Shown: positions 92 to 57,279 of the stretch, in pieces
Position numbering within the stretch: the stretch's first letter is position 1
Layout of the letters: the number at the start of each line of letters is the position of its first letter
Assembly (NCBI GenBank): GCA_029259175.1
Contig: JAPDJH010000001.1
Span: forward strand, 1-64,000
Direction of reading: 5' to 3'
Source of the DNA: Hadesarchaea archaeon
Lineage (GTDB): Archaea; Hadarchaeota; Hadarchaeia; Hadarchaeales; Hadarchaeaceae
Length of the DNA: 64,000 bases
Translations under genes and position numbers: made by a program
The notes under the pieces: model-generated
What the model was told of the DNA's origin: nothing
What the model saw: the letters and a program-made list of their open reading frames with translations, nothing else
Databases searched by the model: none

Positions 92-1134
92 ATGAGGAGA
101 GACCTAAAGCGTTATTTGAACAGCATCGGTGAAAATAATTCAGGAAAATCCACCATCTTGGACGCGATTTATTGGGCATGTCAAGAACTTACCAATCCGA
201 ATGGAGATACTTTGAGAGAGGTGTTACACAGACGGATAGGGCGTGATATAGGACGTTCAGAAATATTCTTTGGTTATAATCAGGATGCCATTATAGAAAT
301 CTCTTTGAGCACGAAAGCTGGGAAAACTTATACCTTTCAAATCGGTCGAAGTGAGAAGATTTTCCCTCGACTGTCTGACGTGCCCACTTTAGCTGGAGTT
401 CGTTTTTCATTGTCGGCGTGGACATATTCGCTCCTCTTCAAAACCGGAGAGGAAGAATGGTACTTTGTCAAATCCGTGGATGCAGGGCTAAGATCTCGCC
501 CGCCCTATCACTCTTCCTATGAAAATAAGGTTGATTCTGACATGCTTCGGTATGCGAAAGAGAGCGATTTCTTGTCCTCTCATCTTCGGATAAATGACTT
601 GAGCGATCAACTGGATAAAAACCTAGGTGAATTGAAATTGGCTCCTGAACTGGAAAAGAGATTCTGTAGAATGATGAAAGAAATCGTCGGATCACCTGCC
701 TATGAATTTACCCCCCGTCCGGAAAATCCATCTCAGAGAATTATCACATTCCAAGATGGTCAATATCGTGTTTTTGGAGAGTTTCAGGGGGCGGGTCTCC
801 TGCGGGTTGCTCAAATACTTTCCACAGGATTGCTTAGACGGGGCACCGGATTGTTTATCGAAGAGATCGAAACGTACCTCCATCCAAAATCGCTAGAAAA
901 ATTGGCTGGATATCTCATCGAGATAGCAAAAGAACACGATATTCAACTTTTATAACCACTCACAGTTACCACGATGCCCTAAGATACTTTGATTCAGCGT
1001 TTGAGGATGAAAAGTCTAAAAATCAATATTTTCGGTGTTTCGTCGTCTCTCGAGCAAATGGTAAAGTAAGAGTTGAAACAGGAAACGTGATGGAAATTCT
1101 CAACTCACTGTATAAAACAGGCTATCAAAAGTGA
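92..1134 (+). pseudogene. ABC/AAA_15-type ATPase (OLD/AbiEii-like), frameshifted and apparently N-terminally truncated
   Basis: Walker A GENNSGKST, Walker B IEEIETYLHP; ORF stops at 955 (IQLL*) but one extra T in the T-run at ~948-951 restores IQLFITTHS and reads to TGA 1132-1134. Confidence 0.75.
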
Positions 1135-1494
1135 TGTTTTCGGACTAGATTAGGCCTTGATTTTACTCACCATACAATTCTAAGTTTTATGCACATAAAA
1201 ATTCGCCCAACATGGTTACTTTCGGTTATGATCGGTACATTTGACATTGGATGAGTACTGATATTTGCCGTTCCTGAAGGGATCTACCTAGAAACATTGC
1301 GAATGTCGCTCAACTGTGAAAGCTCATAGGACAGTTTACCTGTTCATTTTGAGTTGGTAGCATCCTCGATAGAAGTCTAGTTTTTGAGATGGTGGCAATT
1401 GATTGATGCGGAGAGCTTTGGACAAATGCCTCGGTATCTCGGAATTTTATCGAAGTCCTCTTTAAACGGTTTGCAAAACATGTCTTGGAGGTCT

Positions 1495-2016
1495 ATGAAA
1501 ATAGTGGAGAAAAAAGAAGTAGAAAGAGAATACTATCCCAAGATAAAATCAAAGCTTGAGGAAATTTTTAGTGAAATTTTCCATGATGTATACTTTGAAA
1601 TAACCGCCGATGGAAAGTTCAGTAACAAACTAAAAAGCCAAATCAGCGATTATCGAAATATCGTTTTCGTTTTTCTGAAAAAAGGTACTTCTCCTGATAT
1701 TACAGGATTTGTAAACAACGTGAGAAAAGAGCATAGTGCGAAATATGGCATTCTTCCTGGTTTTGTTGTTGCAGAGTTCAAAAAAGAAAAAATAAAGCTA
1801 GACGACATTTATCAAATTCGGAAATATGCCGAACTACTCGACGCGAGATACGCATTCTTAATTTCTTTGGATCCAATTCCTGAAGAGATAAAACGACTTT
1901 CACGCACGGTATATTCACTACTTTCTCTGCCCGGATATCAGAGAGTGACTCTCGTGCATTGGGATAAAGAGAGTGAACAAATAATCGAATTTTATCCACA
2001 GAAACCGTTTAAGTAA
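1495..2016 (+). CDS. Hypothetical protein, probable PD-(D/E)XK restriction-endonuclease-like fold
   Basis: PDITG...VVAEFK...DIYQIRKY motif spacing; GGAGGT before ATG 1495. Confidence 0.55.
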   Translation: MKIVEKKEVEREYYPKIKSKLEEIFSEIFHDVYFEITADGKFSNKLKSQISDYRNIVFVFLKKGTSPDITGFVNNVRKEHSAKYGILPGFVVAEFKKEKIKLDDIYQIRKYAELLDARYAFLISLDPIPEEIKRLSRTVYSLLSLPGYQRVTLVHWDKESEQIIEFYPQKPFK

Positions 2017-2042
2017 AAAAAACGAAACAGGAGTGTGGAAAA

Positions 2043-2834
2043 ATGAGACAAGCATTTGGTCCCGGAATGTATCTATTTATCGCAGCATGGTACTTGGTGA
2101 TTACAACTATTGTGTTTTCCATTTATTATCCAACTTTAATTCCACAAATTTTTCTCGGGTCGATACAAGCTTTTGTTGGTATTGCGCTTGTCGTACACGC
2201 TTTTTCAAGAAATCCAAAACCAGTGTTAATGTCGGTTTTAGTCGAACCTGAAGATGAAAATAAGAACATAGTTGCAGACGAGAAATATTTAGTTCCTGTC
2301 AGAAGACACGGACGACCCGATCGACCCATAGTCAGACCGGCATATGTTCGCGAAATGAAATCTTTCTGGATTATGATGACTTACTTGGGACTCGCATTTG
2401 TATGTGCATTAATACCCCCATTATATGCCGCTTCATATGTTCTCTCGGCAATCGGTATCGGGTATTTTACAAGTCGTCGCTTAGAACGAAAGATTGAATG
2501 CAAGAGGCCCCCGAGGAAACTTCGAGTAGCTTTTGATATAGGAAATGCGGGACTTACTGGGGTAACGGTTCATGAGATCCAATATCAGATGATAAAACCG
2601 AAAATCGGAGTTCCTCACATAATCTCTCTAGAAACGAAAAATAATGAAAGAAAGTATCTTCGCCCTCATGAAAGAATCACCTCAGAATTTCGATTTCCTG
2701 AAAACAAACAAAGTAGACTTAAACCTGGTTACTACGAGTTTAGGGTCATCCTTTATACGACAAAAATGGAGAGCAAACTTCATATCAACATCCATGTTTC
2801 TGAAGACATGAAAACAATTCGATTTAGCTATTAA
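2043..2834 (+). CDS. Hypothetical membrane protein with C-terminal beta-rich domain
   Basis: 263-aa ORF with ~4 hydrophobic segments, AT-rich. Confidence 0.6.
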   Translation: MRQAFGPGMYLFIAAWYLVITTIVFSIYYPTLIPQIFLGSIQAFVGIALVVHAFSRNPKPVLMSVLVEPEDENKNIVADEKYLVPVRRHGRPDRPIVRPAYVREMKSFWIMMTYLGLAFVCALIPPLYAASYVLSAIGIGYFTSRRLERKIECKRPPRKLRVAFDIGNAGLTGVTVHEIQYQMIKPKIGVPHIISLETKNNERKYLRPHERITSEFRFPENKQSRLKPGYYEFRVILYTTKMESKLHINIHVSEDMKTIRFSY

Positions 2835-3270
2835 CTTTGGTGTAGTCAATTTTTATCCGTCGCACTTTATTATGGTTGAAGAGAGTCGCTTAGTTTAGAT
2901 TTCACACAAGTAAGAGTCATTTTTATCGAGGGTCTCACGAATCCCAAGTCCTAACATATCGCTCTTCATCGTTTTCCTTGGCTTTTCATTTCCTCACTTC
3001 AGCAGATATCTTACCGATTGATTTCCGACACGCAAACAATGAAATCCAATCAATCACCCAAAATTGCCTTTCCTCCGTTGGTTTCGCGAAACCGATGCCC
3101 CACCGATAAATCACCCGATGCATCGGCGATGATGGATCCAACCAATCGCTTTAATCGCCCAAAAAATCGCTCTCCCCATCGCCCCCGTATCGACCGATGC
3201 ATCGCCGATGAAATCGGTTTTTTCCCACAGGTAGATAGAATGGGCTGGTGAATCGGTCGATTATCTGGCC

Positions 3271-4035
3271 TTAGGGAGCGTCAAAGAGATGCTTAAGTAG
3301 TTTCAAATCAAAACAATTTTTCTCTTTGCGGGGTTTCTCAAAAAGACAAGGATGAGGGATTATCCTAGGGATAGTCGGAGGAGCTTTATCAAAAGTAAAA
3401 CCATTTACGGTTATTGGTGGAGGAACCCTATTAACATAGTTTAAAACCAGTTTAAACGAGGTCTCTGGCTTTATGTAAATAAAAGCCTCCTTGTGTTTCC
3501 ACGTATAAATTTTCAGCCCGACTTTTTCATGAACTTCTTCGAAAAGTGTACGTAAGTGTTTATTCACTTTTCGTATGGCGGCTTCGCTGAGTGGGTTCAC
3601 TAAGCCTGTGTTTCTTACCAACTTTTCAACTTGTTTTGGAACTGGTTTAGATTTTTTCTTAATTGGATGAACGATTTTCTTGAGCAAAACTTTAATTTCC
3701 TTATCTTTTCTACAGATTTCATCTAAATCTATATGCAAAGCAGCGACGAATCCGGCCCACCAACAAACTTTAGATAATTTTACGGCTGTTTCTAGATCAT
3801 GGAGCAGAATTCTGTGTTTGTCGCCTAAATACTTGGCCGGATGATCTAAGAGGGAGTGTACCCAGCAGTGCTTTCCCTCATATTTTACCCCGATTACTGA
3901 GCCAGTAAATAGACAATGAACCCAATCGTCGGGCACATTCAATTTTCTCCGAAATTCAGATAAAAAATTTACCACTCGTAATCCGCTAGATTCAGAAGAT
4001 GTTTGGATGGAGAAGCGACGATTCGAAATGTGCAC
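3271..4035 (-). CDS. Hypothetical His-rich protein (HxxxD...HRxxxH...H)
   Basis: 254-aa ORF; His cluster suggests metal binding; start uncertain. Confidence 0.45.
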   Translation of the reverse strand: MHISNRRFSIQTSSESSGLRVVNFLSEFRRKLNVPDDWVHCLFTGSVIGVKYEGKHCWVHSLLDHPAKYLGDKHRILLHDLETAVKLSKVCWWAGFVAALHIDLDEICRKDKEIKVLLKKIVHPIKKKSKPVPKQVEKLVRNTGLVNPLSEAAIRKVNKHLRTLFEEVHEKVGLKIYTWKHKEAFIYIKPETSFKLVLNYVNRVPPPITVNGFTFDKAPPTIPRIIPHPCLFEKPRKEKNCFDLKLLKHLFDAP

Positions 4036-4204
4036 AAAGACAAACTGATGGCTAATTTGTTCTCGAGCACGAAAACAGCGTTATATACGATGTTTAGGGA
4101 TGCTCTACCCGCCTAATGTTCATGAGGAAATAAACTTTGCCAATTTGTAGACCGCGGAAGTACACAAAAAATGTGAATGAAGTTTTACGCGGATAAAATC
4201 ACGC

Positions 4205-5406: not shown

Positions 5407-5663
5407 GTTTTCGACCCAAGACTGGGTTTGGGACGAAAATCGCTAGCGTTTTCTAGAAATGCTGAGCCCCAGTGCCCGCACATCTTGGGGTCGTAGCTCG
5501 ACGGTCCACTCATGAACCTCCGCCCCCGCCCCAAGCCCTTTTAAAAAAAAAAAAACATAAATTTTGGGTGGGGGCATGTTAAAGAACCCACCACCATCTA
5601 AGTTTAAACTCGTTGAAGGCTTCACGAAACGTTTGAGGGGGGGGGGGAGAGCGTACTGCAGTT

Positions 5664-8600
5664 GTGTCGAAGCTCCTTGCACTCACAATAGCTGCTATAA
5701 TTTTGGCCAATCCGCTCGCTATCTTCGCCAGCACCCCCATTTCTGCGGCTGCTAGACAAAGCCCTGTTGTTACCTATCAGAGCTTAGATAACACTTTGGT
5801 TTTTCCTCCACCGTCTACTAATAATATCCAAGACATCTCCTTCACGGTAGATTTTGGTAAACTCTGGGTTGAGAATCTAGACAACTATCACCTAGTCAAG
5901 ATTGCGGGGTGTGGTCTGTGGAGCGGTGGGGAGGGCGAACCCACTGTTCCAGCGCGCACCGTTCTAGTTTTGCTTCCCCCAGATGCGACCATTTCGTCCG
6001 TTGAAGTCACTGCTCTGCCCACCCTATCAAGGGCCCTGTCGGAAGAAATCCGTTTGTATCCCCACCAGCGCCCGATCCCCTTACACCTGCTCGATAATTT
6101 GAAACGTAGATTCGTGCCTCCTGACCCACAGATCTACTCCTCGTCTAATCCCTATCCGGGCCAGCGAGGAAAACTTGCGTTCCTCACAATCGACAAAGGA
6201 TATCGGATAGCAGGAATAACTCTCTTTCCGATCGCCTACATCCCTTCGCAGCGCAGAGTTGTGTTCTATCCCAAGCTCAGCGTGCACATCAAGCTCAAGA
6301 GCGCTGCGGACGCGAGAAGCCTAACGAGGGTAAAGCCTCTACCAGGCGATGATGAACAACTCAGAAAGCTCGTGGTTAACCCCGAGATTCTTAGTACCTA
6401 TTCCACGATAACTCCAACCAGCGCAGGCTTTAGCACTCTAGCCTCGGGTGATTTCGCTCCAACCAGCACGGGCTCCAGCGCTTCAACCGAGGAATCCAGC
6501 TCCCTGCTACCACCGGGCACCTACCCCTATGTAATCATCACCAGCGATGAGCTGAAGAATTCAGGCGAATGGCAACCCTTAATTGACCGGAAGAACTCAA
6601 GAGGTCTAAACGCAACAATTGTCACGGTCGAATGGATTTACTCCAATTACAGTGGTTGCGATAACCCTGAAAAAATTCGGAACTTTATCATCGATGCTCA
6701 CAACACTTGGCAGACAAAATGGGTTCTCTTGGGCGGTGACGATACGGTAATCCCCCCGAGATATTTTTACGTAGAATCATGGGAGGGGGGCTATGCGACA
6801 TATATGCCTGCTGATCTCTACTACAGTTGCCTCGACGGTAATTTTAACTATGATGGCGATTCCCAATGGGGAGAACCGAACGATGGTCCTGATGGAGGAG
6901 AGGTAGATCTATACGCGGATGTTTATGTCGGTCGAGCGCCCGTTGCTAGCGCGTCCGATGTGTCGAACTTCGTTTCCAAAACTTTGGCATACGAGGATTT
7001 CGTCCCATCGCCAAAGTATCTTGCTTATATGGTGGGCGAGTACTTGGGTTTTGGTGGAGTCACCGAGTACGCAAAGCCATCGTTGGAGGAGATGAGGCTC
7101 GGCTCAGATGCCCATGGCTATACTACGGCGGGTTTTGTCGACTCGGATAACTTTACGACTCAAACTCTTTACGAGGCTGACTCTCCTTGGTCAAAGGACG
7201 ATCTGATAAATATCATAAATAATGGTCTCCGGGTGATAAATCACTTAGGCCACGGCAATACCGACCATGCTATGAAGCTTGACAACCCAGATTTGGATTC
7301 CCTTACCAACACGCAATACTTTTTCGCTTACAGCCAAGCTTGTTTGTCTGGGGCCTTCGACGTTGGAGAGGCTTGGGCAGAGAAAGTTGTTCGGATGGCA
7401 CACGGCGCTGCAGCCGTTGTTATGAACGCTAGGTACGGATGGGGAGCGGTGGATAGCACTGATGGACCCTCCCAGTGGTTCGCTAGGCAATTCTGGGATG
7501 CGGCATTCGGAGAAGGCATTTACAACTTGGGTAAAATGAACTCAGATTCGAAAGAAGACACAATTGAAATAAGGTATAACTGGGAGTGCTGGCGGTGGTG
7601 TTATTATGAACTCAACCTCTTCGGCGATCCGGAACTTAATCTCGGTCAGCTCATTCTCACAAGCCCCCCAGCTCTTACAATTGATGTCGAGCCAGAGCTG
7701 AGCAACGGAGAAACAACGATTACGGTGAGTTCAACGCAAGATTTAACATCGCTAACTGTGACCGTAACAGCCCCCGACGGAACCTCCACGAACGTCAGCA
7801 TGTCAGAAATTGCCCCGCTGAAGTGGTCGGGAACCTACACTGTTACTCAAGACGGAACCCACACCGTTCATGCCGAGGGAATAAACGCGGCAGGTATGGT
7901 GGGCACAGCTGATGCGACATTCGTGGGCGATGTCACCCCTCCGACGATTCAGAACCTCAATGCCAACCCTGGGAGTTTTAACCCAGACAATGGAGAGAGC
8001 ACCTCGATAACGGCAAGTATAACCGAGCAGGCCAATTGGACCCTCACTATAAAGGAATCCTCCGAACCTCAAACCCCTCCTTACTGGCGTATCGGACTCG
8101 AGAACCTCGTTGGCTATTGGCGCTTTGACGAGGGAACCGGGACAGAGGCTGGTGACAGTGCAGGAAAAAATGACGGGAAAATTTATGGCGCGATTTGGGT
8201 TCCCGGCAAGCTGGGTTCTGCTCTCTATTTCGACGGGGTGGACGATTACGTTGAGATTCCAGATTCAGAGAGTTTGGATCTCACCAGCTTCACGGTTGAG
8301 GTTTGGGTATATCCGAGAGAGATCAAGTCCGATTATCAGCCCCTGATAGTCAAGGGGGAGCAGGAGCGTAACTACGGCTTACTCATCCGTCCCGACGAGA
8401 TGCGCATCCACTTCTCGTTCAAGCGGACGGACGGGACTTGGGCTGCCAGCGACAGCGTTGGCTCGCTCACGCTGAATGCTTGGAACCACGTTGCCATGAC
8501 TTACGACGGATCGAAGCTCAGGCTCTACCTCAACGGGCAGCTGGATCGTGAGGTGGCAGAGAGCGGTACACCCATGCAAAGTGGCGCCCCCGTAAGAATA

Positions 8601-27747: not shown

Positions 27748-29088
27748 TCAGGATCGCTCGAGCACGACCTTCCCGTTGGGCAGGTTGGTGACGGGGTTCC
27801 AGCCCTCCTCGATGAGGCGCTCGGCCTCCTCGGGCGGGACGACGCGCCTCTGGATCGCGCTGCGCACAGTAGACGTGAGCCGCTCGCGCACGAGTTCCTG
27901 AAACTCGTCATCGCTCAGCTCCGCCAGCCTCATGTCGGCAATCTCCTCGGGCTTGAAGCCAGCGGCGAGCAGAAGCTGACGCCTGAACTCGATGCGCACG
28001 TTCTCGCGACTTGCGGTGCCGGTGGTCTGCAGGAACTCTTGGGCGCGCTTGTAGGCCTCGCGCATATCCTCGACGACCTCCTGAGGCAGCTGGTACTTGT
28101 TCGTCGTGTACCTGGACTCGATATCCCCCTTGTGGCCCATCCAGAACTCCCGGTAGTCGCGGATCAGCAGCCCGCGCCCCTCGGCCATCATAAGCCACGT
28201 GTCGAAGTAGCTCCGCAGCACGTACGGACGCCAGTTGAACCCCGCCTTCCTGATCGCCCTGCGGATGCAGCTGGTTATCTTGGGGGTGGTAACGAAGCGC
28301 GATCGGAGCCCCTTGAACTTCGAAGTTATGACGGGGGAGTCGGGCCCGAGCTTCTCCCCCTCCCTCAGTCTGCGGTTTAGGTACTCCTCGACATACCTGC
28401 ACCCTTCCTCGCTAAGGAACGTGAAGTACTGGTGCTCGGTTTTGCTCACCTCCTCGCGTACGATCACCATCGCCGGAACCCTAGTGAACCTCACGGTTCG
28501 CTTGCCGAGCTTGAGTTCGGGCAGGTCTTTTATCCTGAGCCCGTCGCTGCCCTCGTAGTCCCCCAACGTCTCCGGGCGCAGGCCAGCGTGGGCCATCAGC
28601 GCGCACGCAGCGCGAACCCGCTCGTCGCCCGCCAAGAAGATGCGTCTAAGCTCGTCTTGGTTCGGGACGCGTTCCTCGCGGAGTGTCGGGGTGCTGTCCG
28701 CCCTCTTTATCTTGACCTTGAACCTGACCTCCCGGTCGTTGTAGTCGAGCCAGGACTTGATGGCCTTCAGCACGGACTTGATGTAGCTCCCCGCTTTGCC
28801 GGAACGCTCGGCCTCCGACACGAAGTCCATCACGAGATCTCGAATTCGTTTGTCTGGCATCCGGGCAAGGCGCTTTGGACTCAGGCCACGCTTTGCGCAA
28901 AACCAGCCGAGTCTGCGGAGGTACACATCCGCCGTAACCGGTGAGCCACGTGCGGTATTTTCATACCACCTCCGCAAGTCTGGCTCGTCAAGCAAATGGA
29001 TATATTTTGCTCTCCGCTCGGCTGCTTGCCGTCCTGCCTTTATCATTTTTCTCGTTTCTCCAGCGACCATCTGCACTCTGAAAAACAA
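27748..29088 (-). CDS. Tyrosine recombinase / site-specific integrase
   Basis: GLRPET (R), SKT (K), YVLRSYF, MGHKG...RY; adjacent to tRNA 3' end. Confidence 0.92.
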   Translation of the reverse strand: MFFRVQMVAGETRKMIKAGRQAAERRAKYIHLLDEPDLRRWYENTARGSPVTADVYLRRLGWFCAKRGLSPKRLARMPDKRIRDLVMDFVSEAERSGKAGSYIKSVLKAIKSWLDYNDREVRFKVKIKRADSTPTLREERVPNQDELRRIFLAGDERVRAACALMAHAGLRPETLGDYEGSDGLRIKDLPELKLGKRTVRFTRVPAMVIVREEVSKTEHQYFTFLSEEGCRYVEEYLNRRLREGEKLGPDSPVITSKFKGLRSRFVTTPKITSCIRRAIRKAGFNWRPYVLRSYFDTWLMMAEGRGLLIRDYREFWMGHKGDIESRYTTNKYQLPQEVVEDMREAYKRAQEFLQTTGTASRENVRIEFRRQLLLAAGFKPEEIADMRLAELSDDEFQELVRERLTSTVRSAIQRRVVPPEEAERLIEEGWNPVTNLPNGKVVLERS

Positions 29089-29127
29089 TCGGCTCCGTTC
29101 TATTTAAAGGTTCCGTACCCTAAAGTG

Positions 29128-29205
29128 TGGTGGGCCCGGAGGGATTCGAACCCTCGACCATCCGGTTATGAGCCGGACGCTCTGACCTGGCTGAGCTACG
29201 GGCCC
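29128..29205 (-). tRNA. tRNA with CAT anticodon, most likely tRNA-Ile2
   Basis: GGGCCCGTAGCTCAG...CCGG CT CAT AA CCGG...GGTTCGAATCCC...GGGCCCACCA; GGGCCC acceptor and A73 fit Ile. Confidence 0.9.
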
Positions 29206-50146: not shown

Positions 50147-50234
50147 TGGTGCGGGGGAGGGGATTTGAACCCCCGAACCCCTACGGGACCAGCCCCTCAA
50201 GCTGGCACCTTTGACCTGACTCGGCCACCCCCGC
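50147..50234 (-). tRNA. tRNA-Leu(GAG)
   Basis: GCGGGGGTGGCCGAG...CCAGC TT GAG GG GCTGG, long variable arm, GGTTCAAATCC...CCGCACCA. Confidence 0.93.
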
Positions 50235-52911: not shown

Positions 52912-53465
52912 TCACTCGCAGTAGCGGCTTCCGTTTCGGCCGTTTCTCCGGCCTGCGCTTCGCTCACTTCTGTGACCTGTGCTGGTTTTGCCTCCCCTCT
53001 GGAAGGAAGCGACACCTCGATGAGCCCCTCCTCGCTCACCGGCACCATGTAGGTGGGCGACCTAACCCGCCGATTACCAATTTGCACGTGCCCATGAACT
53101 ATCAATTGCCTAGCATGCCTTGGGGTTCTCGCCAAACCCTTCTGGTACACCACCCATTGCAGAAAACGCTCGATCACTTTTTCCACAGTCAAGCTCAAGA
53201 CGTCGTCGAGGGTGGGATTCTCTCCCACCAAGCCGAACTTTTGTAGCCGCTCAAAGAGCTGTCGAGTCTCGAGTTCCGCCTGCTTTCCGGTCTTGGTGAG
53301 CAACAAGCGCGCTTGGGTTCTAAACGTGCGTAGGATGGTTTGGGCCTTCCAAATCTCGCGCTTCCGTCTGAGCCCGTACTTCCGGAGAAGCTGGTCCTCA
53401 TAGTCCATGCGTTCTTTTTCCCAGGGATGGCGAGGGGTTGTGTACTTCCTGCGCTGTCTCCTCAT
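52908..53465 (-). CDS. rps4: 30S ribosomal protein S4
   Basis: [24 protein letters not shown]. Confidence 0.96.
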
Positions 53466-53950
53466 TTCTTCTTCTCCTCCTTCTTCTCACCCGATGGCTG
53501 TCCCTCTTTCTTCCTGCTAACACCAACCGTCATCCCCTTTCTGCCGGTGGTTCTCGTGCGCTGCCCCCTAACCGGCAGCCCCAGTTCGTGTCGTATACCC
53601 CTTCTGCTCCGAATCCTGCGCTCCCTACCAATATCCGCCCTAACCGTGAGATCGATATCCATCTCCAACAGGTGCAGATCTTTCCCCGTAACGAAATCTT
53701 TGCGTCGGTTTAGAATCCAGCTCGGAATCCCGTGTTCAAGCGGATTTTTGAGCACCTGCTCCAGCTTGGCGATTTCCTCGTCGCTCAGCGCCCCCAGTCT
53801 TCTGAACGGATCCACCCCTGCCGCATACGCCACGGCCCGCGCAAAGCTGAAGCTCACTCCCTTAATCTGACACAGTGCTCTGTGAACCGCCTTTGTCCCG
53901 TCCAGGTCCTTCCCGACCAGACGAACCACGTGCTTGATTTCTTCCGCCAT
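53462..53950 (-). CDS. rps13: 30S ribosomal protein S13
   Basis: IKGV, NRRKD..TG, RGIRH..GLPVRGQRT. Confidence 0.96.
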   Translation of the reverse strand: MAEEIKHVVRLVGKDLDGTKAVHRALCQIKGVSFSFARAVAYAAGVDPFRRLGALSDEEIAKLEQVLKNPLEHGIPSWILNRRKDFVTGKDLHLLEMDIDLTVRADIGRERRIRSRRGIRHELGLPVRGQRTRTTGRKGMTVGVSRKKEGQPSGEKKEEKKK

Positions 53951-54077
53951 GTTCCAACCTCTCATAGATTTCTTTGTCGGATTTAAAAAGGTGAGCAAGC
54001 GCTGGGGAGGGGAGCGTGGCTTGAGGTCAAAAGGCCCCGGCCGACTACGAAGAACCGGGTTTTTCGTAAATTATCTG

Positions 54078-54096
54078 TGGAGCCGTCGGTGGGATT
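54078..54096 (-). other. Orphan tRNA 3'-end fragment (att-like), AATCCCACCGACGGCTCCA
   Basis: Geometry AAT + 5-nt T-stem + 7-nt acceptor strand + T73 + CCA; matches none of the four tRNAs in the window. Confidence 0.55.
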
Positions 54097-54239
54097 ATAG
54101 GGCGCAGGTCAAACTTTGAGGGCTCAAGTTAAACGGCGCGAGATCCGAATCAGGCACTATCTATGGGAACTGTGAGTGTTTATTCTCTCATTGGCAAAAC
54201 AACAAAAAAGATTTAATATGCCGGTGCTCTAGTTAGATT

Positions 54240-54301
54240 GACCTGTCGGGGTGTCTACCTATCTAGGATAGGTCCCCCGGCCGGGATGATAACCTCGCTT
54301 T
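54240..54301 (+). ncRNA. Putative small structured RNA convergent with the DUF3800-like gene
   Basis: BRE/TATA-like AAAAAAGATTTAATAT (54204-54219) ~25 nt upstream; stems TCGGGG/CCCCGG and ACCTATC/GATAGGT. Confidence 0.45.
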
Positions 54302-54871
54302 CTAGAAGTGTTGCAGAATGTTTTCTAGCTCATGCCGGTCGATTTCGATGGCTGGTAATTTACCCAATCTCGCAAGCTTTGCCACAATATCTGCCAACCC
54401 GATACTTTCATTGTAGGAAGTGCCGATTTCTACGCTTGGATTTTCTCTCCTCAACTTGCGCAAAAGAAATGACACAGATGAACACAGAAATCTCATTTTG
54501 TTATAGTCGTAGTCCTTGTCGATAAGCACCACGTCTTCATTCCGAAGCTCGAGATTTTTCAACGTGAGAAAGATAACGGATGCCAGTAACCTAGCTTCTG
54601 GATCACGGAAGTACCTGAAATTCTTGAGGCATGAACCGTACACAGGAGACCTCAACACTGCTACCGAAAAAACGATACCGCGCTTTAGCGTTTCGATTTC
54701 CTTTTGGTTCAGGTACTTGCCATCGAGCCTCCTTCTCCTCAGCACGATGGGGAGCCTCTTTCCAACACTTTTCTTAAGCTCTTCCAGCAGCCCTCCCCGC
54801 ATTTGCTTAACAGCCGCGACCCACATAGGCAACTGATTTAGCTTACCTGAGGTGTCGATTCCAATTATCAT
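54302..54871 (-). CDS. DUF3800-like RNase H-fold protein
   Basis: MIIGIDTSG...VLID...IGLADIVA resembles DUF3800 (IDESG...D...QLAD). Confidence 0.6.
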   Translation of the reverse strand: MIIGIDTSGKLNQLPMWVAAVKQMRGGLLEELKKSVGKRLPIVLRRRRLDGKYLNQKEIETLKRGIVFSVAVLRSPVYGSCLKNFRYFRDPEARLLASVIFLTLKNLELRNEDVVLIDKDYDYNKMRFLCSSVSFLLRKLRRENPSVEIGTSYNESIGLADIVAKLARLGKLPAIEIDRHELENILQHF

Positions 54872-55067
54872 CCTCGTCCTGTAGTTGTTCTCATGAGCTC
54901 CTTTAACTGTGAATTTTGGCAGGGATTCCATCAAAACTGGAACCGCCGGTGGGACAGCGAGTTGAAGGGCTTTTGACTTCAAGCGCTGGGGAGCTGGCAA
55001 AATTATGGCAAAAGACCTTGGGTCGCGAAGAGCATCTTTTTATTGAACAGAGCAGAAAATTAACCGT

Positions 55068-55310
55068 ATGAAAAGATTGTCGTATCGGGTCATACTCAGA
55101 AAGGAGCCGGAGGGCGGCTATACCGTGATTGTTCCTTCCTTACCTGGATGTGTTACGTATGGAAGTACTAAGAAGGAGGCTATAAAGATGGCGGAGGAAG
55201 CCATCGAGCTGTATTTGGAAAGCCTGCAGGAACACGGTGAGGAGATCCCAACCGAAGAACGCATCTTGGAGCACACCGTGACCGTGAAAGCACCTGAAGT
55301 TCATGCCTAA
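55068..55310 (+). CDS. hicB: HicB antitoxin
   Basis: GGYTVIVPSLPGCVTYG.T..EA..MA.EAI.LYL. Confidence 0.92.
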   Translation: MKRLSYRVILRKEPEGGYTVIVPSLPGCVTYGSTKKEAIKMAEEAIELYLESLQEHGEEIPTEERILEHTVTVKAPEVHA

Positions 55311-55527
55311 GCTTCCAGTTCTCACGCCAGAAAAAGTCATCAAAGTGCTAAAAAGAAAGGGATTCGTTTTGGACAGGATCAAAGGGAGCCACCACTTATA
55401 TTATCATCCAGAAACCAAGCGAAGGGTTGTTGTTCCACTTCATAAAAAGGATCTACCGAAGGGGACCTTGCTCGAAATTTTGAGACAAGCCGGCATAAGT
55501 AAAGAAGAGCTAAGAGAACTGCTGTAA
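55303..55527 (+). CDS. hicA: HicA toxin
   Basis: L...GF...RIKGSH...VVVPLH..DLPKGTL..IL.QAGI. Confidence 0.93.
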   Translation: MPKLPVLTPEKVIKVLKRKGFVLDRIKGSHHLYYHPETKRRVVVPLHKKDLPKGTLLEILRQAGISKEELRELL

Positions 55528-55606
55528 TCCACCCGCGTGCAGTGTATGGCATGGTATTCAGAAATCTTTCCAAAAACACGAAAGAACACTTTCAAAACAC
55601 AACGAG

Positions 55607-55623
55607 CGCCGGGGAGGGGATTT
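55607..55623 (-). repeat. 17-bp exact duplicate of tRNA-Ser 3' end (att site)
   Basis: CGCCGGGGAGGGGATTT identical to 57195-57211. Confidence 0.85.
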
Positions 55624-55649
55624 TGGCACCTTTTTACTGGTAAAAACTC

Positions 55650-57062
55650 TCAATTACTTTTTTTGATAAGAACCACTACGCCAATTGCTATCACGACAAC
55701 AGCAATAGTGGCGATGACCCACAAAATTGGGAACTGGGAAACCTCGGTGAGCTTGACGGTTGCCTCGCCACCTGTTGAGCTGATAGAAGTACTCCCCATG
55801 TATCTCCCATCTGAAGTTTTGAAGTAAATTGTCCGTCCACCAAAGTCGGAGTTCTCTAATTCTATTTTGCCTTCATCATTGGTAGTACCAAGATAATTAG
55901 TGATCTGGTCGCTGGAGTAACCATAATAAATCTCGGCGTTAGCAAGGGGGGTTCCATCTATTTTGTTAAAAGTCAAAACAGCAAAGAGGAGGGTGCAAAA
56001 CGAATTGTCGCTGCTCTCTGAGTATTTGTTGCCTTCTCCTGCAAAGGACGCAGAAATAATTACGGGATCCGGAGAATAAATTTCTGGAGCAGTGAAAATA
56101 GCAGAAATTTGTCCTGCAGAATTCGTTTCGTGGTATAGTGGACTGATGGTGCCTGAACTTGCATGCCAACTAACGGTTTTATTTGCGAGAGGTTTTCCAT
56201 CAAAGGTAAGCGTGGCTGTCAAAACCATGTTTTCCTTGGGCAATAAGCGAAAGTCTCTTTGTGAAATACTCAGGGCGGTGGGGGGCACGATAATATGGAT
56301 TTTAGCATAATGTGCCCCGTCTCTGGTCACGATACAGTAAGTGTGCCCTATAACAGCGGGCGTGTCCAGACAATTGTAGAATTCATATAGTCCGACACCC
56401 AAAGAAGCATCTGGGGCCTCGGCAACGCTCTCCATGGGAACCGCGCCCATGTCGTGAATTCCCCCAGAGCCATTATTTGCCAAGAAAGAGTATGGGCAAT
56501 CTTCAGAATCGGAAAAATACAGGTCGGCTACTACGCCGGTCCTTGTGGCCGTGGAGAAAATGAATCCCCGGGGAAAGGGGTCAATGGAGTATAAAATGGT
56601 GGTCCCACTTGGCAGGTTGTCAGAGTAGAGGTCGGTTGTTCCGTTCGGTTGATAGACCCAGTTAAAAGCAACCCATTTTCGCCCATGGAGGATCAAATCC
56701 GGAACCTCTACCGTGCTCCCAGGAGGGGCTTCCGACGACCAAATAGTATACTGATCCCCACTGTAATCCTCCTTGGATGCTATGACCGAATAAAAATCGT
56801 TGCCAGAGAGAGGGGGCACGTTATCCATCATGTAAGATCCATCGACAGCGGTTGTCGTGCTCGCTACTACATTCCAAGATTGTCCATTAAGCCAGACTTC
56901 GATAGTTATCCCGCTGTGATCAGTTGCTTCCTCTAACATTGCTTTTCCCCTGATTGTTATGGTAGATTCTGACGCAACAACCGGAAAAGGCGTGGAGAGT
57001 AAGATCAGTAGTAGTGTGGCTGAGCTGATAACAACAAAAATTGAAGTCTTACTCTTACTCAT
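55650..57062 (-). CDS. Secreted Ig-like (Big_1/carboxypeptidase-regulatory-like) surface protein with C-terminal TM
   Basis: Signal peptide, LTATL..DGKPLANKTV.W...TNSAG motifs, TM plus KK tail; AT-rich. Confidence 0.8.
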   Translation of the reverse strand: MSKSKTSIFVVISSATLLLILLSTPFPVVASESTITIRGKAMLEEATDHSGITIEVWLNGQSWNVVASTTTAVDGSYMMDNVPPLSGNDFYSVIASKEDYSGDQYTIWSSEAPPGSTVEVPDLILHGRKWVAFNWVYQPNGTTDLYSDNLPSGTTILYSIDPFPRGFIFSTATRTGVVADLYFSDSEDCPYSFLANNGSGGIHDMGAVPMESVAEAPDASLGVGLYEFYNCLDTPAVIGHTYCIVTRDGAHYAKIHIIVPPTALSISQRDFRLLPKENMVLTATLTFDGKPLANKTVSWHASSGTISPLYHETNSAGQISAIFTAPEIYSPDPVIISASFAGEGNKYSESSDNSFCTLLFAVLTFNKIDGTPLANAEIYYGYSSDQITNYLGTTNDEGKIELENSDFGGRTIYFKTSDGRYMGSTSISSTGGEATVKLTEVSQFPILWVIATIAVVVIAIGVVVLIKKSN

Positions 57063-57194
57063 TTCATCCCACCTTCCTTCATCAAGTCACGTATTATAAT
57101 GATTTCGTTTCGGAGCCCACCGGCAACCCTCGAAAAGCTCACATCACATTTTTGACGGCAGATACCGCCGTCTGATGAGAAGTTGACTTTATGA

Positions 57195-57279
57195 CGCCGG
57201 GGAGGGGATTTGAACCCCTGAGGCCCAAAGGGCCACGAGCTCTCCAGGCTCGCGCGCTACCTGGCTACGCCACCCCGGC
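57195..57279 (-). tRNA. tRNA-Ser(GGA)
   Basis: GCCGGGGTGGCGTAG...CGAGC CT GGA GA GCTCG, variable arm GGCCC/GGGCC, G73; CCA not encoded. Confidence 0.93.

Follow-up and report, generated by a model that had tools for sequence, protein, structure and literature searches.

A stack of small gene units without integrase between tRNA-Ser(GGA) and rps13 of a Hadesarchaea archaeon, consistent with serial accretion at tRNA 3′ ends

In a 64,000-nucleotide stretch of DNA from a Hadesarchaea archaeon (assembly GCA_029259175.1, contig JAPDJH010000001.1, positions 1 to 64,000; hereafter the window), a 3.2-kb interval lies between the tRNA-Ser(GGA) gene and rps13, the first gene of a ribosomal protein operon. 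We found this interval to be partitioned by copies of the tRNA 3′ end that resemble attachment (att) sites, and none of the resulting units encodes a recombinase. Sister arrays occur behind tRNA-Thr genes, and among these we observed the stepwise gain of a unit at the core sequence and one transfer of a cassette bounded by such cores. We favour serial site-specific accretion of att-bounded, integrase-less mini-elements that can be mobilised in trans, to which we assign a probability of about 0.55. The units would have been integrated one after the other at tRNA-Ser(GGA), with unit 1 as the newest, through circular intermediates and by a tyrosine integrase supplied in trans.

Copies of the tRNA-Ser(GGA) 3′ end divide the interval

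Below, G000 is the source genome (1.3 Mb), G001 and the following numbers are other genomes of the order and C stands for contig; the relatives compared are species-level metagenome-assembled genomes throughout. Read on the plus strand, the 3′-terminal 17-mer of tRNA-Ser(GGA), CGCCGGGGAGGGGATTT, is found exactly at 57195, in the tRNA gene itself, and at 55607 (copy S1). When up to three mismatches were allowed, the only further match in the window was a tRNA-Leu gene at 50150; 0.28 matches are expected by chance under these settings, and three matches were reached in none of 100 shuffles. Shorter copies were found at 54984 (S2, CGCTGGGGAG) and 54000 (S3, CGCTGGGGAGGGGA). Both are contained in the 14-mer CAAGCGCTGGGGAG, present at 53996 and 54980 and exactly nowhere else in the genome. 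In a search of the whole 1.3-Mb genome for GCGCYGGGGAGGGGA with at most one mismatch, we found four matches, three at the tRNA-Ser(GGA) locus and one in tRNA-Ser(CGA), and none with the reversed control. Every S copy is followed by TGGC within 0–3 nt and, 4–11 nt further on, by a putative GG(Y)(M)AAAA motif. The GC content of the interval is 0.42–0.52, compared to 0.53–0.61 in the flank on the rps13 side and 0.55–0.58 directly past the tRNA.

The same region was compared in 40 relatives. In 18 of them the matches to rps13 and tRNA-Ser are located at most ~350 bp apart on the same contig; in the remaining 22 these matches are at contig ends, on separate contigs or unlisted. Sequences of G002 and G003, which belong to the same genus, were inspected directly and lack the 3.2-kb interval: the tRNA end is separated from the rps13 start codon by ~100 nt in G002 and ~80 nt in G003, and is preceded by the same G before CGCC as S3. 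Because the tRNA adjoins rps13 in 18 of the 40 relatives, we read the 3.2 kb between S3 and the rest of the tRNA-Ser(GGA) gene as an insertion at the tRNA 3′ end. Given its placement and its G-CGCC context, which are as in G002 and G003, S3 is best read as the original tRNA 3′ end, displaced by the insertion. In G009 the gap between tRNA-Ser and rps13 is wider (~310 bp), and it was considered as another array; it was rejected, as it contains no tRNA-end copy and is only a longer spacer.

Direct repeats identical to the 3′ part of an intact tRNA gene are present at 55607 and 57195, and an empty counterpart of the interval exists in relatives. An integrase of its own, as expected for an element that targets a tRNA gene, was found neither by Pfam and PF00589 nor by tblastn: the Pfam scan of the interval proteins revealed no recombinase, and none of the three PF00589 matches of G000 falls within the interval.

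Chance or regulatory repeats in a native interval are a very improbable explanation. Although S2 by itself is just 10 nt long, such an origin is contradicted by the shuffles and genome-wide counts, by the missing interval in relatives and the lower GC content within it, and by cargo that is patchy among relatives.

Unit 1, between S1 and the tRNA gene, has a textbook att layout, with flanks that diverge directly outside its two 17-bp copies. Its product, a 470-aa surface protein, has a Big_1 Ig-like domain (Pfam E 7.7e-9), a signal-like N-terminus and a C-terminal membrane anchor. The N-terminal 258 aa had no match among the 64 other genomes of the order, and the top three non-self matches of the C-terminal module are all located in tRNA-Thr units (G006:C20, G045:C17 and G047:C39). 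A metagenome scan with this protein returned no relative. Unit 2, between S2 and S1, encodes a predicted HicAB toxin-antitoxin pair, with scores of 52.7 bits for HicB and 80.9 bits for HicA against curated cut-offs of 27; the two genes overlap by 8 nt. Terminal inverted repeats are present in neither unit 1 nor unit 2, and PADLOC gave nothing useful for the four cargo proteins of the interval.

The original prediction, which had been made from the letters of this stretch, had listed the exact and shortened tRNA-end copies with their shared 14-mer, an AT-richer interval, a surface Ig protein and hicBA as cargo, units without recombinase and insertion at a tRNA att site. All of these agree with the searches described here. 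It had also proposed that the tRNA-end copies are progressively decayed. S2 is indeed truncated and S3 mutated, but the order is not strict, as the middle copy S2 is the shortest.

Sister stacks behind tRNA-Thr genes

To find further stacks, as the original prediction had suggested, we scanned for extra copies of the final 17 nt of the 44 ARAGORN tRNAs of G000 outside tRNA genes, with at most one mismatch. Such copies are restricted to two regions, the tRNA-Ser(GGA) locus and a stretch of C5 that lies downstream of tRNA-Thr(TGT). A candidate tRNA-Ser-end copy at C2:111232 was discarded, being an intron-bearing tRNA-Ser(GCT) gene. The exact 14-nt core of the tRNA-Thr end (T core) was found in 45 of the 65 genomes of the order, and five contigs from four genomes have it in clusters (at least two copies on the same strand within 5 kb). 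Stacks were inspected on these contigs and at loci flagged by other searches, which is not an exhaustive census. In this way, stacks behind tRNA-Thr genes were found in G000 and five relatives (Table 1).

Units repeatedly hold a single function in 0.6–2.8 kb, in at least seven genomes. The largest, the 2.8-kb unit of G006:C20, encodes a 621-aa beta-propeller/Big_1 surface protein together with a small gene pair that looks like ribbon-helix-helix/RelE by eye and for which Pfam gives only DUF7557, for one member. No recombinase was detected by Pfam in the tRNA-Thr stack units, and a tblastn search with four Hadarchaeota integrases against eight stack regions (best E 0.19) revealed no integrase remnant. 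We aligned 14 T fragments located outside tRNA genes. Eight of the 14 are preceded by a related short distal arm irrespective of the cargo, consisting of CTGTCCTT followed by CTTTCATTAA or TATACTT. Viral contigs searched with the arm pattern yielded nothing. A metagenome search for the distal arm plus T core gave three matches without tRNA, with a GC content of 0.59–0.68, which were taken as chance. Since similar stacks are present in related archaea, small gene cassettes probably gather at tRNA genes in Hadarchaeota.

Two further observations were made at these loci. In G000, the last exact T copy is followed (C5:73058-75914) by an AbrB/PIN (vapBC-like) pair and by a GC-rich gene whose product is a secreted protein of 708 aa, and further units may be present here; after these two comes the core radical-SAM gene that in G024, G045 and G047 stands beside tRNA-Thr(CGT). 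In G037:C1 (L044, 2130-3413), the distal T fragment is shortened by a deletion that reaches into the start of the MNT gene, and this gene is interrupted by a two-ORF (open reading frame) insertion, IS630-like by eye.

Gain and transfer of units at the tRNA-Thr cores

The stacks of G045 and G047 (genus g8) differ by one unit. G045 226-3793 and G047 3584-8 are 94.5% identical over 3577 nt, and the alignment begins exactly at the T core. The segment with tRNA-Ser and tRNA-Thr forms a separate alignment with 88.9% identity. Between the tRNA-Thr core and the alignment start, G047 has 1678 extra bp with a single radical-SAM/SPASM gene. In G024:C5 the site is empty, with tRNA-Thr directly abutting the same core radical-SAM gene. 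By alignment, these three genomes of g8, G024, G045 and G047, therefore represent an empty, a one-unit and a two-unit state, the new unit being located beside the tRNA.

The hicBA cassette of G024:C4 (L025, 328-989) is 93.5% identical over 664 nt to that of G037:C1, a genome of a different family in which the cassette directly follows tRNA-Thr(CGT), and the likeness ends in the T cores. For comparison, the PolD gene beside the cassette is only 68.7% identical over 959 nt between G024 and G037. A third copy of the cassette, with 85% identity, follows tRNA-Thr(TGT) in G000:C5. These identities show a recent, core-bounded transfer of the hicBA cassette between two families. Gain and transfer exactly at the repeats, which the original prediction had proposed to look for in the tRNA-Ser/rps13 interval, can thus be seen in the sister tRNA-Thr arrays (the G047 gain and the hicBA transfer), but not at tRNA-Ser/rps13 itself. 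Except for the gene of unit 3 (in G046 and G026), units 1–3 are held by no other genome of the order that was compared.

The read data consisted of Logan contigs of 150–1200 nt (X6, X7, X8 and X11), none of which spans a repeat. In X6, a joint from 54983 to 57195 with five letters between was considered as a product of excision and rejected, because C4 has a paralogous tRNA-Ser(CGA) locus that matches both the joint and the loose end.

In the mechanism that we propose, an incoming circle would bring a copy of the last 15–17 nt of the tRNA. A crossover inside this core would restore the tRNA gene and shift its former 3′ end, together with the older units, towards rps13, so that unit 1 would be the last to arrive and S3 the tRNA end that was there first. 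The modules may be drawn from a Hadarchaeota pool of mini-elements that use tRNA-Ser and tRNA-Thr 3′ ends as cores and carry toxin-antitoxin pairs, variable surface proteins or single enzymes. Unit 3 would be a tRNA-Ser-type backbone that itself bears a tRNA-Thr-type site holding the cargo gene. As candidate recombinase we consider a tyrosine integrase acting in trans from a related element, such as those next to tRNA-Thr in G004 and G005, and part of the pool probably goes back to integrase-bearing elements whose integrase gene was lost or replaced.

Table 1. Features of the tRNA-Ser(GGA)/rps13 interval (window coordinates) and composition of the sister stacks
Feature	Position	Strand	Basis
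Intact tRNA-Ser(GGA); its final 17 nt (57195-57211, plus strand) are the att core	57195..57279	-	ARAGORN; Rfam tRNA 56.9 bits
Unit 1, 1571 bp, between identical 17-mers	55624..57194		core repeat
470-aa surface protein gene, sole gene of unit 1; upstream region 57063-57194	55650-57062	-	Pfam Big_1
S1, exact tRNA-Ser 3′-end copy (17/17) with a G ahead of it, then TGGC	55606..55623	+	repeat search
Unit 2, 612 bp, between S2 and S1, holds hicBA	54994..55605		repeats; Pfam
hicA	55303-55527	+	Pfam HicA_toxin E 7.4e-23
hicB	55068-55310	+	Pfam HicB_lk_antitox E 5.8e-14
S2, truncated tRNA-Ser 3′-end copy CGCTGGGGAG; with 54980-54983 the 14-mer common to S3	54984..54993	+	repeat search
Proximal 29-nt arm beside S2	54955-54983	+	alignment
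Tb, tRNA-Thr 3′-end fragment TGGAACCGCCGGTGGGA, 16/17	54938..54954	+	tRNA-end scan
Gene for 209-aa protein	54302..54931	-	present in 3 of 65 genomes
Conserved hairpin directly downstream of the 209-aa gene	54230..54295	-	folded alignment of 3 sequences
Tentative fourth copy, arm plus tRNA-Ser end, strongly decayed (weak)	54095..54145	+	alignment with 54955-54993 and tRNA-Ser(CGA) flanks
Ta, tRNA-Thr 3′-end fragment TGGAGCCGTCGGTGGGA, 16/17	54078..54094	+	tRNA-end scan
Distal 64-nt arm of the tRNA-Ser-type backbone, beside S3	54014..54077	+	homologous arms in G024:C4, G041:C16
S3, putative displaced ancestral tRNA-Ser(GGA) 3′ end, 14/15, 48 nt from the rps13 start codon	53999..54013	+	repeat search; G002/G003 comparison
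rps13, first gene of the conserved S13-S4-S11-RpoD operon; ancestral tRNA neighbour, flank and not array	53462..53950	-	Pfam Ribosomal_S13; synteny
G000:C5, tRNA-Thr(TGT): hicAB (0.6 kb), T copy, MNT/HEPN pair, degenerate T copy, second MNT-like pair, exact T copy, vapBC-like pair			
G006:C20, tRNA-Thr(TGT): 2.8-kb unit, T copy, 1.2-kb MNT/HEPN unit, T copy, core genes			
G014:C6, tRNA-Thr(TGT): one unit with 221-aa secreted protein, T copy			
G047:C39, tRNA-Thr(CGT): two single-gene units			
G045:C17, tRNA-Thr(CGT): one single-gene unit			
G037:C1, tRNA-Thr(CGT): hicBA, then MNT			

Unit 3 reads as a nested mosaic

The original prediction had cut the interval into three units. Units 1 and 2 are bounded by tRNA-end copies as it had described, but the scheme is too simple because unit 3 appears as a nested mosaic of tRNA-Ser and tRNA-Thr fragments, of which the tRNA-Thr fragments at 54078 (Ta) and 54938 (Tb) had been overlooked. 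Both were matched against the 3′ end, encoded CCA included, of tRNA-Thr(CGT) and tRNA-Thr(TGT) of G000, and they bracket the gene for a 209-aa protein. Read along the plus strand, unit 3 runs S3, arm, T fragment, cargo, T fragment, arm, S2. This arrangement is repeated downstream of tRNA-Ser(CGA) in G024, which belongs to another genus, with arms that are 77% and 88% identical; there, the T fragments enclose hicBA and not the 209-aa gene. A module of Tb plus the proximal arm is also present directly downstream of tRNA-Ser(CGA) in both G000:C4 and G024:C4, and in G041 the distal arm follows a copy of the tRNA-Ser end. On the strength of these alignments, we interpret unit 3 as a tRNA-Ser-type backbone carrying a tRNA-Thr-type site with a cargo gene.

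Within the two arms, 54019-54036 is an inverted repeat of 54967-54984 (18 nt, 89% complementary). A transposon, miniature inverted-repeat transposable element or casposon was considered for unit 3 and rejected, because no repeat abuts these inverted arms symmetrically. When genome collections were searched with a pattern for the tRNA-Ser-type distal arm, only two Hadarchaeota records that were already known were returned. For the 16-nt arm motif only exact matches are meaningful; with two mismatches it is no commoner than its reversed control.

The 209-aa gene probably starts with the ATG at 54931 and not with the TTG at 55000. Its product had been labelled DUF3800-like, which we could not uphold: the protein matches no Pfam family even at E ≤10, PF12686 (DUF3800) included, and a language model pointed weakly to clusters, in one of which 15% of the members have DUF3800. 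The single-sequence AlphaFold model was unusable (mean predicted local distance difference test score 32.8). The gene is patchy, with a presence in 3 of the 65 genomes of the order. The homologue in G046 has 62% aa identity and two in-frame stops, and the one in G026 is located at a contig end.

An RNA had also been proposed for this unit. We found a conserved hairpin at 54230-54295, in which 3 of 31 pairs are kept through changes on both sides among the three sequences aligned. It is long, better conserved than the 209-aa gene itself, and accompanies this gene in G046 and G026. An RNA gene of a described family was not recovered: 54010-54300 matches no Rfam family, and Rfam on the entire interval matches tRNA only.

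At the G024 counterpart (L025, 160-236), a decayed tRNA-Thr(CGT) pseudogene is located 9 nt from the displaced tRNA-Ser(CGA) end. Tandem tRNA-Ser(CGA) and tRNA-Thr(CGT) genes are intact in G047, G045, G037 and G005.

Integrases and alternative origins of the stack

Integrase genes next to the same core were found in G004 and G005, downstream of tRNA-Thr (~80 nt in G005 and, going by the longest ORF, a few hundred nt in G004). The two integrases are 86% identical to each other, and both are 40–45% identical to the protein encoded at G000:C1:118694-119956. Viral contigs searched with the G005 integrase yielded nothing. The 55–75 nt between tRNA and integrase contain a TATA-like box. G014 has almost the same arm in its integrase-less unit, and a recognisable version of it is present in the new unit of G047, so that integrase-less units share att arms with integrase-bearing elements; no such trace was seen in units 1–3. 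The shared arms fit mobilisation in trans and, equally well, loss or replacement of the integrase.

In a search with PF00589 (E ≤0.001), 43 of the 65 genomes of the order had a match and 22 had none, among them G001–G003. This negative set includes a 95%-complete genome in nine contigs, and the lineage may be devoid of a XerA-type recombinase.

Several observations weigh against serial accretion. An integrase specific for the tRNA-Ser core was found nowhere, and the three tyrosine recombinase genes of G000 have other tRNAs as neighbours, namely tRNA-Met, tRNA-Gly and, at a primase-bearing element, an odd tRNA. PF00589 matches nothing in the stack-bearing genomes G006, G024 and G037 (87, 92 and 94% complete), whose cassettes may be immobile. 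Gain or loss of units 1–3 at tRNA-Ser(GGA)/rps13 was seen in no other genome compared. About 55 nt of the integrase-promoter arm seen in the G004/G005 elements survive in the units of G014 and G047, which have no integrase, as would be expected of deletion derivatives. Moreover, the G046 homologue of the 209-aa gene has no surrounding tRNA fragments, the likeness stopping 60 and 118 nt inside the T fragments. Finally, the order hicBA then MNT is common to G000:C5 and G037, so that arrays may move as blocks, and the 5′ flank of tRNA-Ser(GGA) is rearranged relative to G002 and G003, which implies that the history of the locus exceeds simple insertions.

Part of this evidence also suits dead remnants, i.e. 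deletion leftovers of larger integrase-bearing elements at the tRNA, immobile and never small circles, an origin that we consider possible though doubtful. Besides the retained arms, the unit-3 gene of G046 and the three stack-bearing genomes without a PF00589 match, the truncated S2 and mutated S3 point in this direction, as do the partly deleted distal T fragment of G037 and the insertion sequence in its next gene. According to the portions of a review available to us (PMC8371274), archaeal integrated elements without an integrase probably lost it after integration, and the concept of cis-mobilisable elements (CIMEs), as outlined in sections of PMC5704250, gives the same outcome in bacteria. 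However, the eight stack regions bear no trace of an integrase pseudogene, and deletion would have had to leave one function per 0.6–2.8-kb unit repeatedly. The integrase-less hicBA cassette, which has the same boundaries in three genomes, was transferred between families in recent times, and the unit recently gained by G047 likewise has no integrase.

The array, or unit 3 with its arms, could also have been built elsewhere, e.g. downstream of tRNA-Ser(CGA), and have arrived in one event by tRNA-Ser recombination or composite transfer, in which case the repeats would not be a serial record. Tb, arm and S2 together copy the tRNA-Ser(CGA) flank of G000:C4 and G024:C4, and G001 has two complete copies of tRNA-Ser(GGA). 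The shared hicBA-MNT order and the 5′ flank, which differs between G000/G001 and G002/G003, fit such a block as well, and integrase-driven rearrangements between tRNA genes are described for Thermococcales in the consulted part of PMC5495485. Nevertheless, we consider this unlikely, as unit 1 has its own clean and exact 17-bp att pair, S3 is positioned like the tRNA end of G002 and G003, and the sister array of G045/G047 changes in one-unit steps.

Relation to known systems

The closest described concept appears to be that of CIMEs and tandem accretion at tRNA 3′ ends, as set out for ICESt1-type elements of streptococci in the sections of PMC5704250 that treat them. In these sections, CIMEs keep attL and attR, have no integration genes and are arranged in tandem at a tRNA 3′ end, a new element enters the att site that contains the gene end, and movement needs a related integrase, as it presumably would in the archaeal array. 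Compared with the elements described there, the archaeal units are small (0.6–1.7 kb) with a single function, a tRNA-Thr core is nested in a tRNA-Ser-type unit, and no functional integrase-bearing partner accompanies the array, whose mobilisation is putative. As in a CIME, attL and attR are retained in the array, and genes for integration and transfer are absent.

Archaeal elements integrated at tRNA genes, with SSV-type and pNOB8-type integrases and 'gene capture', were reportedly described by She et al. in 2001. Tandem integrations and loss of the integrase after integration are covered in the available portions of the review PMC8371274, and the smallest cryptic integrated element in the parts at hand of a survey of Thaumarchaeota (PMC6563490) is 2.6 kb long and has an integrase. 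The direct repeats that correspond to the downstream part of the tRNA and the tandem integrations in those accounts are shared by our stacks, which may likewise have lost an integrase. In contrast to the elements they describe, the stacks contain neither an integrase gene nor split integrase fragments and are much smaller.

Neither tandem integration at tRNA genes nor the existence of att-flanked leftovers without an integrase is new in itself. In the main texts of open-access articles (no subscription journals), we found no description of tRNA-end-bounded, integrase-less stacks of single-function cassettes for archaea or Hadarchaeota. Within this literature, the combination of core-exact gain, recent interfamily transfer and nested core types in such cassettes seems new for archaea.

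Integron cassettes are small and mostly single-function, have a recombination site at their end, stack with the newest beside the insertion point and commonly carry toxin-antitoxin cargo. The modules of the array are likewise small, mostly hold one function and would be stacked newest-proximal, and some have a conserved site-proximal arm. However, the array has no IntI, attI or Pc, no PF00589 match near it, and sites that are tRNA 3′ ends and not attC hairpins; its genes lie on both strands, each with an upstream region of its own, whereas integron cassettes mostly share one orientation and lack promoters. The term integron-like in the original prediction thus holds as an analogy, but without IntI, attI and attC and with mixed orientations and own promoters it does not hold as a classification.

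The pdif modules include toxin-antitoxin pairs. In the portions consulted of PMC13141974 and PMC6449649, which deal with dif (pdif) modules of Acinetobacter plasmids and other Xer-exploiting elements, small modules lie between sites of a recombinase encoded elsewhere and are reshuffled among contexts, which resembles the stacks. Unlike those modules, the array is chromosomal and its sites are tRNA 3′ ends and not dif-like. A host Xer is not evident in 22 of the 65 genomes, which lack a PF00589 match, including the three stack genomes named above.

A more far-reaching interpretation, which we put forward tentatively, is that Hadarchaeota possess a cassette system which uses tRNA 3′ ends and resembles integrons or dif modules in its working but not in its parts. 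Its cassettes would be 0.6–3 kb long and consist of cargo, a short conserved arm and a 15–17-nt tRNA-end core. They would be captured beside tRNA-Thr and tRNA-Ser with the newest proximal, be exchanged between genomes, enter secondary cores located in other cassettes as well and rely on integrases that they do not encode themselves.

The small size of the units, their recurrence across the phylum, the two nested core types and the recent transfer of a cassette make these stacks notable. If the cassettes move in trans, they would be an archaeal counterpart of gene capture by integrons and dif modules. Such movement would explain the toxin-antitoxin and surface variation in the streamlined 1-Mb genomes of these uncultured hydrothermal archaea, and it would provide a rule for finding cargo, namely to search the few kb that follow a tRNA gene for copies of its 3′ end. 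Should the cassettes be nothing more than decayed remnants, the stacks would be a well-documented though ordinary case of island decay.

Other tRNA-linked elements and the far side of tRNA-Ser(GGA)

Further elements at tRNA genes were encountered. In the window, a gene for a 446-aa tyrosine-recombinase-like protein (27748-29088; PF00589 25.1 bits, below the cut-off) begins 40 nt downstream of tRNA-Met (29128-29205, minus strand). The region 27748-29205 is probably an integrated element; a distal copy of the tRNA end was not found with up to two mismatches. On G000:C1, the gene for a 420-aa integrase with a C-terminal zinc ribbon (118694-119956) overlaps the end of an odd 92-nt tRNA, and is followed within 118624-124002 by a gene for a 358-aa protein and one for an 837-aa protein that looks primase-like by eye. 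Imperfect copies of the end of this tRNA are present at 141452 and 156174. A very small integrase-bearing element follows tRNA-Thr in G005:C22 (L057, 4139-5779). It comprises genes for a 394-aa integrase and a 79-aa protein, has no clear distal core and is followed by core genes.

On the 5′ side of tRNA-Ser(GGA), from 57280 onward, G000 and G001 alone have genes for a PRC-barrel and a hexapeptide protein next to the tRNA. The gene at this place in G002 and G003 was read by eye as proteasome-beta-like, and its counterpart in G000 is located 140 kb away (C1:197814-198449). As the genes on this side differ, a rearrangement breakpoint is indicated at the 5′ side of tRNA-Ser(GGA). In G001:C2 (L026), two complete and identical tRNA-Ser(GGA) genes are found at 4083-4169 and 5639-5725, the repeat extending a few nt past both ends. 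They flank a single gene, which encodes a 426-aa secreted protein with a weak match to Peptidase_M23, and on the far side lies archease/RtcB and not rps13. The locus looks like a one-gene unit between whole-tRNA repeats.

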